From an uncultured Enterobacteriaceae bacterium (GTDB taxonomy: Bacteria; Pseudomonadota; Gammaproteobacteria; Burkholderiales; SG8-39), in contig CAYSFD010000057.1 in the NCBI GenBank assembly GCA_964430565.1, forward strand, positions 23,218 through 87,217: DNA of 64,000 nt, read 5' to 3'. This document shows positions 53,528 through 58,081 of this stretch, piece after piece (position 1 is the first letter of the stretch; every line of letters starts with the position of its first letter). Both the position numbers and the translations under genes were made by a program. The notes beneath the pieces are model-generated. The model was not told where the DNA came from and ran no database searches. It saw only the letters and a list, made by a program, of their open reading frames with translations.

Positions 53528-54881
53528 GCCCTTCGCTGTCGAAGAGCGGCACCGCGTTTTCGCCTGCGACCGCAAGGCACTCGCGCGCGGCGTTCGCGCC
53601 GGCATGGCCGTTTCGGCGGCGCTCGCCTTAGCGCCCCGGCTGAGCGTTGCGCCGCGCGATCCTGCGGCGGAAACCGAGGCTTTGCTCGGCGTGGCCGGCT
53701 GGGCGGCGCAGTTTACGCCCGGCGTGGCGCTTGAGTTTCCCGATTGCGTATTGCTCGAAGTCTCGGGGAGCTTGAAGCTCTTCGGCGGCCTGGAGCCGCT
53801 CCTTGAACGCCTGCGCCGAGGGCTTAAGGAAATGGGGTGGAGCACGACGCTCGCCGTCGCTCCCACGCCGCGTGCGGCTTTCTGGCTTGCCCTCGCCGGA
53901 AAAGGGGAATTCATCGGCTCGACGGCCGAGATTGAGCCGGCCCTCGCCTCATTGCCCGTCGAGATCTTTTGCCGCAACGACGAAACACGGGCAGCGCTCG
54001 GGGCGATTGGCGTCCGCACGCTGGGCGAGCTGCGCGCGCTGCCGCGCGATGGCGTGGCGCGGCGCTTCGGACCGGGGCTGCTCGACGAGATCGATCGCGG
54101 GCTCGGGTGTCTTCCCGATCCGCGGATTTTTTTCGTTCCACCAACGCGGTTCAGAGCAGCGATCGAACTTCCAGCGGAAGTCACCCAGGCCGAGGCGCTG
54201 CTCTTCGCCGCGAGGCGGCTGATCGTGCAACTCGCCGGGTTTCTCGCCGCGCGCTCGAGCGGCGTGCAGCGCTTTGTCCTCCGGCTCGGACATCGCGACA
54301 GGGCTGCTACCGAAATCACTATCGGCCTGGTCGCACCCTCCCGCGATGCCGAACACTTCACGGTGCTGCTGCGCGAGCGGCTTTCCGGTCTCGCAATCGC
54401 CGAACCGGTACGCGAGGTCATTTTGCAAGCCGATGACCTGGTACCGCTTTCCGGCCGCAACCTTGGGTTGCTGATCGAGCAAGGCAAACCGCCCGGCCGA
54501 TGGGAATCACTGGTCGAACGGCTGCGCGCACGGCTCGGCGGCGCGGCGGTGTGCGGCATTGCCGGCCGAGCCGAGCATCGGCCGGAGCGCGCCGGCGTGG
54601 TTGCCGATCTTGAAGCAAAGCAAATGCAGATGGATTTCGGCGAGCGTCCCTTCTGGCTGCTCGATCGTCCACGGCCGCTTGCGGAAATCGACGCCGTGCC
54701 GCATCACGACGGGCGGCTTGAGCTGCTCGTCGGCCCGGAGCGCATCGAGTCGGGATGGTGGGACGGGGACGATGTCGCCCGTGACTACTTCGTCGCCCGC
54801 ATGCAGAACGAAGCGCTCGTGTGGATCTATCGCGAGCGCCGCGGCGAAGGGGGATGGTATTTGCACGGTGTATTCGCGTGA
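53460..54881 (+). CDS. imuB: Y-family polymerase-like protein ImuB
   Basis: In-frame part of ORF 53340..54881. ATG 53460 gives MWIAIRLPQLPLEIF, typical of ImuB. 68-nt overlap with imuA. Confidence 0.87.
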   Translation: MWIAIRLPQLPLEIFLRGSSTPEPFAVEERHRVFACDRKALARGVRAGMAVSAALALAPRLSVAPRDPAAETEALLGVAGWAAQFTPGVALEFPDCVLLEVSGSLKLFGGLEPLLERLRRGLKEMGWSTTLAVAPTPRAAFWLALAGKGEFIGSTAEIEPALASLPVEIFCRNDETRAALGAIGVRTLGELRALPRDGVARRFGPGLLDEIDRGLGCLPDPRIFFVPPTRFRAAIELPAEVTQAEALLFAARRLIVQLAGFLAARSSGVQRFVLRLGHRDRAATEITIGLVAPSRDAEHFTVLLRERLSGLAIAEPVREVILQADDLVPLSGRNLGLLIEQGKPPGRWESLVERLRARLGGAAVCGIAGRAEHRPERAGVVADLEAKQMQMDFGERPFWLLDRPRPLAEIDAVPHHDGRLELLVGPERIESGWWDGDDVARDYFVARMQNEALVWIYRERRGEGGWYLHGVFA

Positions 54882-57800
54882 CATCGACCGCCCTACCCGC
54901 CTACGCCGAGCTGCATTGCCTGAGTAATTTCACCTTCCTGCGCGGCGCCTCGCACCCGGAAGAGTTGGTGCAGCGCGCCGCCGCGCTCGGTTATTCGGCC
55001 CTTGCGCTGACCGACGAATGTTCGCTCGCCGGTGTCGTGCGCGCGCACGTCGCGGCGAAGGATGTCGGCTTGCACCTCGTCATCGGCTCGGAAGTGCAGT
55101 TGAAGGACGGGCCGAAGCTCGTGCTGCTCGCGACCGACCGCGGCGGTTACGGCCATCTCTCGGAGCTCATCACCCGCGGGCGGCGCAGAAGTAAGAAAGG
55201 CAGTTATTCCCTCGGCTGGGAAGATTTCGATAGCGGGTTGCCGGGGTGTCTGGTGCTGCTCGCATTCCCTCACCCCTACCCTCTCCCGGAGGGAGAGGGG
55301 GAAAAACAAGCGCGCTCGATCGCCGAGCGCTTTCCCGGCCGTGCCTGGATCGCGGTGGAGCTGCTGCGCGGGCCCAACGACCGGGCGCGGCTCGCCGAGT
55401 TGCGCGAGCTAAGCAGGCGCTGCAGCCTGCCGCTGGTCGCCTCGGGCGATGTGCACATGCACCTGCGCTCGCGTCGGCCGTTGCAGGATACGCTGACCGC
55501 GATTCGCCTTCGCACGCCGGTGCACGCCTGCGGTCACGCGCTCCACCCCAACGCCGAGCGGCATCTGCGACTGCGCATGCGCCTGGCGCAGATTTATCCG
55601 GCCGAGTTGCTTGTCGAAACCGTGCGCATCGCCGAGCGCTGCCGTTTTTCTTTGGAAGAGCTGCGCTACGAGTATCCCGAAGAGCTCGTTCCTCCGGGCG
55701 AAACTCCGGCGAGCTGGCTGCGCAAGTTGACCGAAGAGGGATTGCAGCGACGCTTTCCCGCAGGCGCATCGCAGAAAATCCGCGATCTCATCGAGCGCGA
55801 GCTCTCGCTCATCGCCGAGCTTCGTTACGAGCCGTTTTTCCTGACGGTCCACGATATCGTACGCTACGCCCGCAGCCAGAGCATTCTCTGCCAAGGGCGC
55901 GGCTCGGCGGCCAATTCCGCCGTCTGCTACGCGCTGGGCATCACCGAGGTCAATCCGGCCAAGCAGGAGCTCTTGTTCGAACGCTTCATCTCGAAGGAGC
56001 GCAACGAACCGCCTGATATCGACGTCGATTTCGAGCACCAGCGGCGCGAGGAAGTCATCCAGTACATCTACCGCAAATACGGCCGCGAGCGCGCCGCACT
56101 GGCAGCCACGCTCATCACTTACCAGCCCAAGAGCGCGCTGCGCGACACAGGCAAGGCGCTGGGGCTCGATTTGCAGCAGGTCGATCGCATCGCCAAATCG
56201 ATCGCCTGGTGGGACGACCGCAGGGAGCTTGCCACTCGCCTGCGCGATGCGGGCTTCGATCCCGCGAGCCCGGTCATGCGGCGCCTCATGGCGCTTGCCT
56301 CCTCCTTGCTCGGTTTTCCGCGCCATCTGTCGCAGCATGTCGGCGGGTTTGTCATATCGCGAGGGGCCCTCGCGCGCTTGGTGCCGATCGAGAACGCCGC
56401 GATGCCCGAGCGCAGCATCATCCAGTGGGACAAGGACGATCTGGAAAACCTGGGTCTGCTCAAAGTCGATGTCCTGGCGCTCGGCATGCTCTCCACCATC
56501 CGACGCGGACTGGACTTCGTCAACGAGTTGCGCGGCAGCGCGATCACCATGGATAGCCTGCTGCGCGAGGAAGACCCCGCGGTCTACGAGATGATGCGGC
56601 ACGCCGACACCGTCGGAGTGTTCCAGATCGAGTCGCGCGCCCAGATGTCGATGCTGCCGCGGCTGAAGCCGGAGCATTTTTACGATCTCGTGATCGAGAT
56701 CGCGATCGTGCGGCCCGGACCGATCCAGGGGGACATGGTGCACCCTTATCTGCGGCGGCGCGCTGGCAAGGAGCCGATCGATTATCCCAACGACGCGGTG
56801 AGAAAAGTTCTCGAGCGTACTTGCGGAGTGCCGATTTTCCAGGAACAGGTGATGCAGCTCGCGGTGGTGGCGGCGGATTTTACCCCCGGCGAGGCCGACC
56901 AACTGCGCCGTGCGATGGCCGCCTGGCGCCGCAAGGGAGGGCTGGAGCCCTTCCACAAAAAACTCATGGACGGCATGCGCAAGAACGGCATCTCTACAGA
57001 ATTCGCCGAGCGCATCTACCGTCAGATCCTCGGCTTCGGCGAATACGGTTTCCCCGAGTCGCATTCGGTTAGCTTCGCCCTGCTCGCCTACGTGTCCGCC
57101 TGGCTCAAGCGCCACGAGCCGGCGGCGTTTCTCGCGGCGCTCCTGAACAGCCAGCCGATGGGTTTCTACACGCCCTCGCAACTGGTGCAGGATGCGCGCC
57201 GCCACGGAGTCGAGGTGCGGCCTGTAGACGCGTGCTCGAGCGAATGGGAGTGCATTCTGGAAAACACCACCCCGCCCTCCGCTGGCGCTTCGGGCACCCC
57301 TCCTTACCAAGGAGGGGAAGGTCTATTCCTCTCCTCCTCGAGGAGGGGTGGCAGCGAAGCTGCCAGGGGGGTGCAGCCCGCCGTGCGCCTCGGTTTCTGT
57401 TTGGTGCAGGGCTTGTCGCAAGCGGGCGCCGAGCGCGTTGTCGCCGCGCGAAAGATCCTATCGTTTGGCAGCGTTGAGGATCTCGCCCGGCGCGCTGAAC
57501 TGAACCGGCGCGACCTGAAGTGCCTGGCGGCTGCCGGAGCGCTCGAGGCGCTCTCAGGCCACCGTCGCGACGCCTACTGGCAGGTCGCCGGAATCGAAAT
57601 CGGCGCGCCCGTCCTGCGCGGCGCACCGGTGGCGGAGACTCCGCCCGTACTTCGCGCGCCAACCGAGGGAGAGAATCTCGTCGCCGACTACGCCAGCACT
57701 GGCCTCACGCTCGGGCGCCATCCTCTCGCGCTGCTGCGCCCGCGCCTTGCACGCATGCGCTTTGTCGCCGCAGAGGAGATCCGGGGGCTGCCAAGCGGCA

Positions 57801-58081
57801 GCGCGGTCCGGGCGGCGGGAATCGTCACCGGCCGTCAGCGCCCGGGCACGGCATCCGGAACGGTATTCGTGACGTTGGAGGATGAAACTGGTTGCATCAA
57901 TGTTATTGTCTGGCGCGATCTCACCGAATGCCAGCGCCGCGAGTTGCTCGGCGCGCGCCTGATGGGCGTCGAAGGAGTGCTTGAACGCGAAGGCGAAGTA
58001 ATCCATCTTGTGGCGAAGCGGCTGACGGACCACAGCGCCCTCTTGGGACAGATCGTCACGCAGTCGCGAGATTTTCACTAA
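54878..58081 (+). CDS. dnaE2: Error-prone DNA polymerase DnaE2 (ImuC)
   Basis: In-frame part of ORF 54821..58081. GTG 54878 (GTGA overlap with imuB) gives VTSTALPAYAELHCLSNFTFLRGAS (PHP domain). The Pol III alpha core follows. Confidence 0.93.
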   Translation: MTSTALPAYAELHCLSNFTFLRGASHPEELVQRAAALGYSALALTDECSLAGVVRAHVAAKDVGLHLVIGSEVQLKDGPKLVLLATDRGGYGHLSELITRGRRRSKKGSYSLGWEDFDSGLPGCLVLLAFPHPYPLPEGEGEKQARSIAERFPGRAWIAVELLRGPNDRARLAELRELSRRCSLPLVASGDVHMHLRSRRPLQDTLTAIRLRTPVHACGHALHPNAERHLRLRMRLAQIYPAELLVETVRIAERCRFSLEELRYEYPEELVPPGETPASWLRKLTEEGLQRRFPAGASQKIRDLIERELSLIAELRYEPFFLTVHDIVRYARSQSILCQGRGSAANSAVCYALGITEVNPAKQELLFERFISKERNEPPDIDVDFEHQRREEVIQYIYRKYGRERAALAATLITYQPKSALRDTGKALGLDLQQVDRIAKSIAWWDDRRELATRLRDAGFDPASPVMRRLMALASSLLGFPRHLSQHVGGFVISRGALARLVPIENAAMPERSIIQWDKDDLENLGLLKVDVLALGMLSTIRRGLDFVNELRGSAITMDSLLREEDPAVYEMMRHADTVGVFQIESRAQMSMLPRLKPEHFYDLVIEIAIVRPGPIQGDMVHPYLRRRAGKEPIDYPNDAVRKVLERTCGVPIFQEQVMQLAVVAADFTPGEADQLRRAMAAWRRKGGLEPFHKKLMDGMRKNGISTEFAERIYRQILGFGEYGFPESHSVSFALLAYVSAWLKRHEPAAFLAALLNSQPMGFYTPSQLVQDARRHGVEVRPVDACSSEWECILENTTPPSAGASGTPPYQGGEGLFLSSSRRGGSEAARGVQPAVRLGFCLVQGLSQAGAERVVAARKILSFGSVEDLARRAELNRRDLKCLAAAGALEALSGHRRDAYWQVAGIEIGAPVLRGAPVAETPPVLRAPTEGENLVADYASTGLTLGRHPLALLRPRLARMRFVAAEEIRGLPSGSAVRAAGIVTGRQRPGTASGTVFVTLEDETGCINVIVWRDLTECQRRELLGARLMGVEGVLEREGEVIHLVAKRLTDHSALLGQIVTQSRDFH
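55279..55299. repeat. Perfect 9-bp-stem hairpin inside the dnaE2 coding sequence (REP-like insert)
   Basis: CCCTCTCCC-GGA-GGGAGAGGG, translated in frame as part of PHPYPLPEGEGEK. Confidence 0.55.
57297..57364. repeat. Cluster of three hairpins inside the dnaE2 coding sequence (REP/MITE-like insert)
   Basis: CCCCTCCTT-ACC-AAGGAGGGG (57297-57317), palindrome CCTCCTCGAGGAGG (57333-57346), GGCAGC-GAA-GCTGCC (57350-57364). Translated in frame as the low-complexity stretch TPPYQGGEGLFLSSSRRGGSEAARG. Confidence 0.55.

Follow-up and report, generated by a model that had tools for sequence, protein, structure and literature searches.

GTAG- and CGTC-tagged repetitive extragenic palindromes (REPs) were catalogued by Di Nocera, De Gregorio and Rocco in 2013, and a minority of them were found in frame inside genes, where dimers encode 20-30 residues (PMC3733652). 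The genes that host these intragenic REPs are enriched in replication and repair functions, and the catalogue includes dnaE2 itself in Opitutus terrae (Oter_4053, residues 934-971) and Sphingomonas wittichii (Swit_1119, residues 166-246), as well as a hit in dnaE of Rickettsia conorii (RC1211) at residues 853-861; the authors suggest that intragenic REPs sit in linkers or loops (PMC3733652). Here, a comparable case is analyzed in a 64,000-nucleotide stretch of contig CAYSFD010000057.1 (assembly GCA_964430565.1, an uncultured bacterium placed in the Burkholderiales by GTDB), called the window in what follows. It concerns an in-frame insert at 57266-57373 of dnaE2 (imuC), the gene encoding an error-prone DNA polymerase. 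The insert is very probably a passenger, namely a head-to-head dimer of a dispersed palindromic repeat of about 48 nt, similar to bacterial interspersed mosaic elements (BIMEs) and to REP doublets forming hairpins (REPINs), which is tolerated in a loop of DnaE2.

The insert is edged by an imperfect inverted repeat, ACCACCCC on the left and (A)GGGGGGTG on the right, and is composed of two units in opposite orientation around a short spacer (Table 1). The left unit reads ACCACCCC (57266-57273), a variant second segment GCCCTCCGCTGGCGCTTCGGGC (57274-57295), an A, hairpin 1 (CCCCTCCTT-ACC-AAGGAGGGG, 57297-57317) and AA. The right unit reads TT, hairpin 1' (CCTCTCCTCC-TC-GAGGAGGGG, 57328-57348), where one arm position has decayed, a T, hairpin 2 (GGCAGC-GAA-GCTGCC, 57350-57364, with the core GCGAAGC) and the tail AGGGGGGTG (57365-57373), which corresponds to GGGGTGGT in the family consensus. 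The perfect palindrome CCTCCTCGAGGAGG is located at 57333-57346. An earlier note on this DNA, made from the letters alone, had described the region as three consecutive hairpins. The three hairpins do lie at the coordinates that it gave, in frame in dnaE2, and the peptide that it quoted is encoded; its anatomy had to be revised, since the hairpins are parts of two inverted units. A repeat finder returned 25-nt inverted arms at 57295-57319 and 57326-57350, and the minimum-energy fold is a single long hairpin that spans both units and is centred on 57320-57325, so a row of three hairpins is an incomplete description.

Folding of the region 57263-57380 was compared with 200 dinucleotide shuffles. 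As DNA, it reached -36.9 kcal/mol versus -23.2 kcal/mol in the shuffles (z = -4.8), and as RNA -71.9 versus -50.8 kcal/mol (z = -5.2); none of the 200 shuffles matched the native energy in either case. The window contains 30 perfect hairpins with a stem of at least 8 bp, and only two of them, both inside dnaE2, have one all-pyrimidine and one all-purine arm. According to the shuffles, no match to the hairpin 21-mer would be expected.

Table 1. Position of the insert, its parts and its host gene in the window, together with the state of the same loop in relatives and the genic copies of the repeat in other genomes. HMM, hidden Markov model; MAG, metagenome-assembled genome.
Feature	Position	Strand	Basis or description
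Whole in-frame insert, 108 nt, 36 codons, peptide TTPPSAGASGTPPYQGGEGLFLSSSRRGGSEAARGV	57266-57373	+	Head-to-head pair of repeat units
Left unit, variant 'Y', reverse orientation	57266-57319	-	Profile HMM; found alone in some relatives
Head-to-head spacer GGTCTA, centre of the long palindrome	57320-57325	.	Repeat finder and fold
Right unit, variant 'X', forward orientation, 48 nt	57326-57373	+	Profile HMM; found alone in some relatives
Loop of L004			Same pair as in the window
Loop of L001 (P0003)			Left unit only
Loops of L002 (P0012) and L005 (P0040)			Right unit only
Loop of L006			Decayed left unit and right unit
Loop of L003 (P0004 group)			Pair reverse-complemented relative to the window
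Loop of L125			Only ACCACCCCGGCAGCTGCG and GAGGGCGGGGTGGTG left
Loop of L126, representing the large 'LPSSQ(A/P)' clade			Only the arm CCCCTCCTC left
Loops of L007 and L124			Empty
Genic copy in L010, Burkholderiales			mfd (UvrB_inter / MFD_D3)
Genic copy in L053, Oscillospiraceae			mutL (DNA_mis_repair / MutL_C)
Genic copy in L055, Acidobacteriota			mutS2 (MutS_V / Smr)
Genic copy in L054, Burkholderiales MAG PRO12			AMP-binding acyl-CoA synthetase, three units
Genic copy in L102, Burkholderiales			pepN
dnaE2 (imuC), error-prone DNA polymerase, host of the insert	54854-58081	+	Pfam domains; synteny in relatives
Hairpin CCCTCTCCC-GGA-GGGAGAGGG of the first in-frame insert, peptide PHPYPLPEGEGEK	55279-55299	+	Hairpin scan; alignment

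An alignment was built with the 120 best DnaE2 homologues (74-100% identical). The loop between the WECTLE and AVRLGF motifs is short in most of them (0-5 residues), with two residues in many and five to seven in a large number of others, as against about 36 in the window protein, and this shows that the segment is an insertion relative to most orthologues. Long loops are modular: TPPSAGASGTPPYQGGES is found alone in P0003, P0029 and P0045, PSSSRRGGSEAAGVVQP alone in P0012, P0040, P0041, P0044, P0048 and P0066, and both together in the window DnaE2 and in P0002, and the loop peptide of the P0004 group (TPAAALPPLLVEEGKNPSPPCKGGVPVAQAEGGVV) looks unrelated to them. In a neighbour-joining tree built with the two variable loops masked, which serves as a rough guide only, the insert states are scattered among insert-free lineages.

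The loop was also read at the DNA level in the dnaE2 genes of ten relatives (Table 1), from which a forward unit of the form (T)T-CCCCTCCTC-NNN-GAGGAGGGG-T-GGCNGC-GAA-GCNGCC-GGGGTGGT was obtained. The L003 insert aligns with the reverse complement of the window insert without gaps and with 95 identical bases, whereas the direct alignment has many gaps; the right half of the L003 insert is matched by the window left unit when the latter is reverse-complemented. The reading frame is open in either orientation, and the encoded peptides are unrelated. L125 has the form of L003 minus an internal segment that was deleted between short GCG repeats. The empty allele of L124 is 94-99% identical to L002 across most of dnaE2, but the identity drops to 88-89% around the loop (300-nt windows), where L124 is as close or closer to L007. 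This tract, at about 2800-3100 of L124 (columns 2400-2700 of the dnaE2 alignment), suggests that L124 may have lost the repeat by a short recombination tract with an empty allele.

Regarding these alleles, the element has evolved at one site among lineages that are 75-91% identical in protein, and turnover and conservation of the loop act on DNA and not on protein. At this site, the pair has been inverted as a whole between its terminal inverted repeats, one or the other unit has been lost and internal deletions have occurred at short direct repeats, and replacement of the insert through recombination with an empty allele is probable as well. The series of orthologues (pair, inverted pair, halves, remnants and empty loop) gives a direct view of repeat turnover inside a gene without breakage of the gene. 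Furthermore, the spread in DnaE2 length among very close orthologues, from 1021 to 1104 residues, is due largely to gain, inversion and decay of repeats at two loops.

The relatives are also informative about the quality of the sequence. The contig is derived from a metagenome and palindromes can cause mis-assembly, so the insert might be an assembly or binning artefact, either a chimeric join or a collapsed repeat in the contig, as the earlier note had admitted. However, the same pair occupies the same site in an independent ENA assembly (L004), related states are found in at least nine other ENA/JGI assemblies and the reading frame is intact throughout, which leaves an artefact with a practically negligible probability.

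The repeat is also found outside dnaE2. In L001, L002 and L004 there is an intergenic copy of the unit about 9 kb downstream of dnaE2, between convergent Meth_synt_2 and xanthine-dehydrogenase-like genes; the matching position of this spacer is just past the end of the window. A pattern scan of 185,579 species genomes with the 20-base pattern GGAGGGGTGGNNGCGAAGCNGCC yielded at least 116 loci and at least 124 copies, with at least 18 loci in one Betaproteobacteria MAG and at least 8-10 in several others. Among the matches listed, the hosts belong to Burkholderiales, Alphaproteobacteria (including the isolate Microvirga calopogonii), Rickettsiales, Acidobacteriota, Phycisphaerae, Oscillospiraceae and Acidimicrobiia.

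The consensus of the family, for a unit of about 48 nt, is TT-CCCCTCCTT-NNN-AAGGAGGGG-T-GGCNGC-GAA-GCN'GCC-GGGGTGGT, that is, a pyrimidine/purine hairpin followed by a mini-hairpin of the GCGAAGC type and by a G-rich tail, which pairs with ACCACCCC of an inverted partner unit. GCGAAGC is a classic DNA mini-hairpin of extraordinary stability (PMC13037366). Conservation extends beyond the search pattern, to the left arm of hairpin 1 and to the tail, which reads GGGGTGGT in 84 of the 124 copies listed. In hairpin 2, the one stem position left free by the pattern covaries (T-A 54, C-G 43, G-C 20, A-T 1), being a Watson-Crick pair in 118 of the listed copies and G-T in only two. A profile HMM built from these 124 foreign copies, none of which comes from dnaE2, matches the window at 57325-57373 on the plus strand (E = 6.4e-11) and, on the minus strand, the half of the left unit that contains hairpin 1 (57295-57320, E = 8e-4).

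The palindromes could in principle have been generated locally and de novo, without any mobile element, if template switching, slippage or hairpin-primed synthesis had taken place in a permissive loop. The hypervariable loop, with its differing palindromic states among close relatives, would be compatible with it, and the arm CCCCTCCTC that stands by itself in the LPSSQ(A/P) clade can be read as a pre-existing seed. Nevertheless, the 48-nt unit also occurs in other phyla and at unrelated sites, both intergenic and genic, and a profile devoid of any dnaE2 copy recognizes the window unit. A local origin is thus extremely improbable.

Concerning the arrangement of the units, singletons, tail-to-tail dimers, head-to-head dimers and one tandem array are present among the listed copies. 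In the tail-to-tail dimers, a unit and 12-20 variable nt are followed by ACCACCCC-GCCGCC-TNC-GGCGGC-A-CCCCTCCTC-NNNN-GAGGAGGGG; the head-to-head spacers of other genomes are variable and have about 6-15 nt. The tandem array, in L028 (6005-6123), consists of three units placed perfectly head to tail with a period of 48 nt, a multiple of three, beside an inverted copy of hairpin 1. The unit is a short imperfect palindrome able to form stem-loops, with a length inside the range of the REP/BIME class (about 20-50 nt), and singletons, inverted dimers and clusters are the arrangements of that class. The family is also predominantly extragenic, as only 5 of the 124 listed copies have Pfam domains on both sides in one ORF (open reading frame); most loci are classed as intergenic because they have no validated spanning ORF.

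The GC-rich core of the unit is nearly unchanged within AT-rich flanks in L021, L044, L053 and L081 (Oscillospiraceae) and in L056 and L071-L073 (Rickettsiales). Low-GC hosts also have genome-specific sub-variants, for example with a shorter hairpin 1 (CCCCTCC-TT(T)-GGAGGGG). The presence of a GC-rich core in low-GC hosts suggests either a sequence-specific constraint or a recent transfer. It is possible, if rather doubtful, that the 48-nt unit represents an undescribed super-family of REP-like elements crossing phyla. Its core of about 33 nt, GGAGGGG-T-GGCNGC-GAA-GCN'GCC-GGGGTGGT, may be nearly invariant in Proteobacteria, Acidobacteriota, Planctomycetota, Firmicutes and Actinobacteria, and its GC richness even in AT-rich hosts suggests recognition by a conserved enzyme acting on single-strand DNA. 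If this conservation across phyla is true, the family would be a handle for finding the mobilising enzyme outside Proteobacteria.

Ten repeat-bearing loci had no match in Rfam at gathering thresholds, and the insert region had only chance-level hits (E of at least 0.26). Six sequence strings of hairpin 2 were not found in the searchable literature, and there were no matches in 2.9 million viral contigs. A blastn search of the PLSDB plasmids with the tail-to-tail dimer found none, a result to which the low-complexity filter may have contributed.

The structure of the insert could also have its role in RNA. According to this alternative, a stable structure in the imuB-dnaE2 message, sequestering two Shine-Dalgarno-like AAGGAGG motifs, would slow translation down or weaken it, or else affect mRNA stability, and would be retained on that account, the peptide being a by-product. 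The RNA fold energy given above agrees with it, and so do the hairpin potential retained across lineages and orientations and the arms of hairpin 1, which mimic a Shine-Dalgarno/anti-Shine-Dalgarno pair; moreover, many REPs have been argued to act as RNA (PMC3733652). However, many close orthologues are insert-free or hold only a fragment, and the structure is therefore dispensable. The scarcity of G-T pairs in the listed copies argues for palindromy at the DNA level, hairpin 1' of the window is already short of one pair and a terminator-type T-run is absent. An RNA-level regulatory element is hence considered unlikely.

With respect to copies inside genes, ORFs that span a unit and extend for at least 80 codons to either side of it were collected and checked with Pfam. 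In five of the 31 candidates, the unit is flanked by Pfam domains on either side (Table 1). Most of the 31 were rejected as spurious GC-rich ORFs or 5' extragenic positions, with no Pfam support or with domains on one side only. In the genic copies the unit is read in several different frames, typically giving peptides such as PS.SRRGG.EAAGVV, SPP.QGGVAA..PGW, TTPAA..PPLL.EEG and HHPG.FAATPP, so no particular peptide appears to be selected. DNA-repair genes are three of the five validated hosts and come from three phyla (mfd, mutL and mutS2), in a sample that is small and dependent on the Pfam validation. This echoes the unexplained bias reported in PMC3733652, and the three genes are independent cases to be added to the published preference of intragenic REPs for replication and repair genes. 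The genic copies, that of dnaE2 included, may be biased towards genes of DNA repair and mutagenesis; if true, this would point to a targeting mechanism or to selection for altered repair capacity.

The host gene itself is part of an ORF of 1086 codons (54821-58081, mechanical call), and the dnaE2 start in Table 1 was computed from the 1075-residue length of a 100%-identical NCBI protein, P0001. The precomputed Pfam domains of P0001 are PHP, DNA_pol3_alpha, DNA_pol3_finger, HHH_6 and OB, close homologues carry the source name 'error-prone DNA polymerase', and the window DnaE2 can be aligned to solved structures of the alpha subunit of DNA polymerase III (Pol III). In relatives, the gene order is lexA, an unannotated ORF, an imuB-like gene with an IMS domain and dnaE2. 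With a Pol III alpha-type domain set and a cassette of the lexA-regulated imuA-imuB-dnaE2 type, the gene can be assigned to DnaE2/ImuC as far as its sequence and context indicate. Downstream of dnaE2, the gene content differs among the close relatives L001-L007 and L124-L126. A 180-residue ORF with faint TPR hits is found 3' of dnaE2 in L001, L002, L003, L006, L124 and L125 and is absent there in L004, L005, L007 and L126, L007 having a TctABC cluster in that place.

The alignment to E. coli Pol III alpha breaks off at residue 818 on one flank of the insert and resumes at residue 834 on the other, so the insert replaces the turn of the beta-hairpin that precedes the helix-hairpin-helix (HhH) motif. 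An AlphaFold model was obtained from a 46-sequence alignment, with a mean predicted local distance difference test score (pLDDT) of 57 and a predicted template modelling score (pTM) of 0.38. In this model, the strands 801-805 and 841-845 are in 10-residue blocks with a mean pLDDT of 82-88, and residues 806-839 have block means of 24-29 and no secondary structure. This fits, weakly on its own, a tolerated surface loop that is predicted to be disordered.

The position near the HhH DNA-binding motif raises the question of whether the peptide could have been co-opted, the 36 residues giving DnaE2 a new property such as a partner-binding segment or flexible tether near the HhH or beta-clamp-binding region. 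The insert is always in frame and adjoins that motif, and repair genes are hosts repeatedly (dnaE2, mfd, mutL and mutS2, and also in PMC3733652). Staying in frame, however, is a mere condition for survival of the gene, the peptides are wholly different between the two orientations, and either half or nearly the whole insert can be lost. The use of several reading frames of the unit in other genes and the predicted disorder of the segment also speak against a selected peptide. Co-option is consequently very unlikely; there is no sign of peptide function, and the insert looks tolerated and not co-opted.

The preferred interpretation is therefore that of a passenger repeat dimer. The insert would be translated, its 36 residues forming a disordered loop tolerated by the enzyme, and we infer that it is neutral or nearly so. 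Its persistence could be explained by a length that is a multiple of three, the lack of stop codons, a permissive loop and a host gene of the SOS response that is rarely expressed. The units probably move as single-stranded DNA hairpins by means of a trans-acting enzyme, of the kind of the REP-associated tyrosine transposases (RAYTs) or other HUH enzymes, as proposed for REPs and REPINs. This route is suggested by the analogy with REPs and RAYTs, by the mini-hairpin core and by the nearly pure Watson-Crick covariation. For annotation, it means that the low-complexity stretch of this DnaE2 is selfish repeat DNA and not a lineage-specific functional domain.

Several observations weigh against this interpretation or against parts of it. 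No further copy was found in the 64-kb window with exact and 3-mismatch patterns, blastn-short or the profile HMM, and, because the window has only the dnaE2 pair, the multi-copy status of its own genome is deduced from sister genomes. No target-site duplication was found in the filled alleles among the dnaE2 loops of the window and the ten relatives, and there is no clean pair of empty and filled sites, as the empty alleles differ in their flanking codons. The overall quality of the AlphaFold model is poor, the insert is only assumed to be translated and the kept hairpin potential could also reflect a role at the RNA level. With regard to the enzyme, a RAYT/IS200 motif regex retrieved no ORF in about 1 Mb of collected loci, RAYTs being single-copy, and tblastn with an approximate E. 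coli RayT query gave only noise in the same loci. The all-versus-all clustering of 1780 ORFs from 116 loci gave no family recurring beside the units except common housekeeping types.

A gene of the DUF559 family (Vsr-like endonuclease fold) abuts units in L014 (2577-3160, a Phycisphaerae MAG), where it is flanked by two direct units, and in L019 (4255-4615, an Oscillospiraceae MAG). Its presence next to units in 2 of the 116 loci, too few for an association, could be a coincidence or a lead to a mobilising nuclease.

The earlier note had interpreted the insert as a MITE- or REP-type element domesticated as a loop (MITE, miniature inverted-repeat transposable element). The part of that claim which refers to a REP-type repeat in frame in a DnaE2 loop is sustained: the repeat is absent from most orthologues, intergenic in sister genomes, multi-copy elsewhere and recognized by the profile. 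Conservation at the protein level irrespective of palindromy, which the note had regarded as fatal to its claim, was looked for, and no conservation independent of the DNA palindrome was found. Domestication, on the other hand, is not supported, given that the peptide is unconserved, the reverse complement in L003 encodes a different one, halves or most of the insert are lost elsewhere and the insert is modelled as disordered. The MITE assignment is also unsupported, since the inspection of the filled alleles gave no target-site duplication at the insert borders. The opinion that chance hardly accounts for palindromic inserts in an SOS polymerase gene fits the intragenic REPs of PMC3733652 and the copies in mfd, mutL and mutS2.

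The same note had put this insert together with a first one in dnaE2 (55267-55305), which has the form CCCTCACCCC-T-A-CCCTCTCCC-GGA-GGGAGAGGG, replaces PDGKHDAEH of most orthologues and is patchily distributed across the DnaE2 tree. Both inserts are indeed palindromic and located in dnaE2, but the first could not be attached to the same family or to any dispersed family, as no dispersed copies of its hairpin were found in the collected sequence of the window, the relatives and the repeat loci. The hairpin recurs only in dnaE2 of relatives and in two loose look-alikes, and membership of the first insert in the family of the 48-nt unit is unsupported. In L004 (1440-1520), the first insert carries an extra palindromic insertion of about 75-90 nt, in frame and flanked by a CCCTCAC direct repeat. 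The REP site of Swit_1119 is roughly the site of this first insert.

Among the described systems, the GTAG/CGTC REPs share with the window family the short palindromes, the occurrence as singletons, head-to-head and tail-to-tail dimers and clusters, the mostly intergenic location and the minority in frame. However, the window family has no unpaired terminal GTAG or CGTC tag: the consensus lacks CGTC, and its sole string resembling GT(A/G)G, namely GTGG, shares bases with the paired GG of hairpin 2. Moreover, those REPs are single stem-loops of 20-40 nt, whereas the window family has a two-hairpin unit of 48 nt and, unlike them, spans several phyla with a nearly invariant core. The peptide strings typical of the window family are absent from the table of intragenic REPs in PMC3733652, and the family itself was found neither in Rfam nor in the searched literature.

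REPINs, which are associated with RAYTs, likewise consist of two inverted units with a short spacer that form one long hairpin, and they have many copies per genome (Bertels and Rainey 2011, PMC3116915). The window pair has this form, with two inverted REP-like units, a spacer and one hairpin. REPIN-RAYT systems are described as mostly inherited vertically and lineage-specific, in contrast with the core of the window family, which crosses phyla and remains rich in GC where the host is AT-rich. The family has two unit variants of alternating orientation, which we take to be similar to the Y and Z palindromic units of E. coli BIMEs.

The Rickettsia palindromic elements (RPEs) are also in-frame palindromic repeats in coding genes, at surface positions and compatible with function, and were reportedly found by Ogata et al. 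(2000 and 2002) inserted in frame in many protein-coding genes of Rickettsia. RPE-1 elements have a length of roughly 100-150 bp and are not known outside this genus. They are described as longer than REPs (PMC3733652). The likeness is one of behaviour only, that is, in-frame genic insertion, and the intragenic copies of the window family are a minority (5 of the 124 listed, plus dnaE2). With MITEs, the family has in common that it is small, non-autonomous and structured, with short inverted repeats at its edges (ACCACCCC / GGGGTGGT). MITEs have terminal inverted repeats together with a target-site duplication, whereas the window family shows no such duplication and has no known parent insertion sequence, and its units occur singly and in both types of dimer and not as a fixed element bounded by terminal inverted repeats. 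Since intragenic REPs in dnaE2 are already catalogued in PMC3733652, the phenomenon as such has been described, and the window insert is a well-documented new example of an intragenic REP-type repeat and not a new phenomenon.

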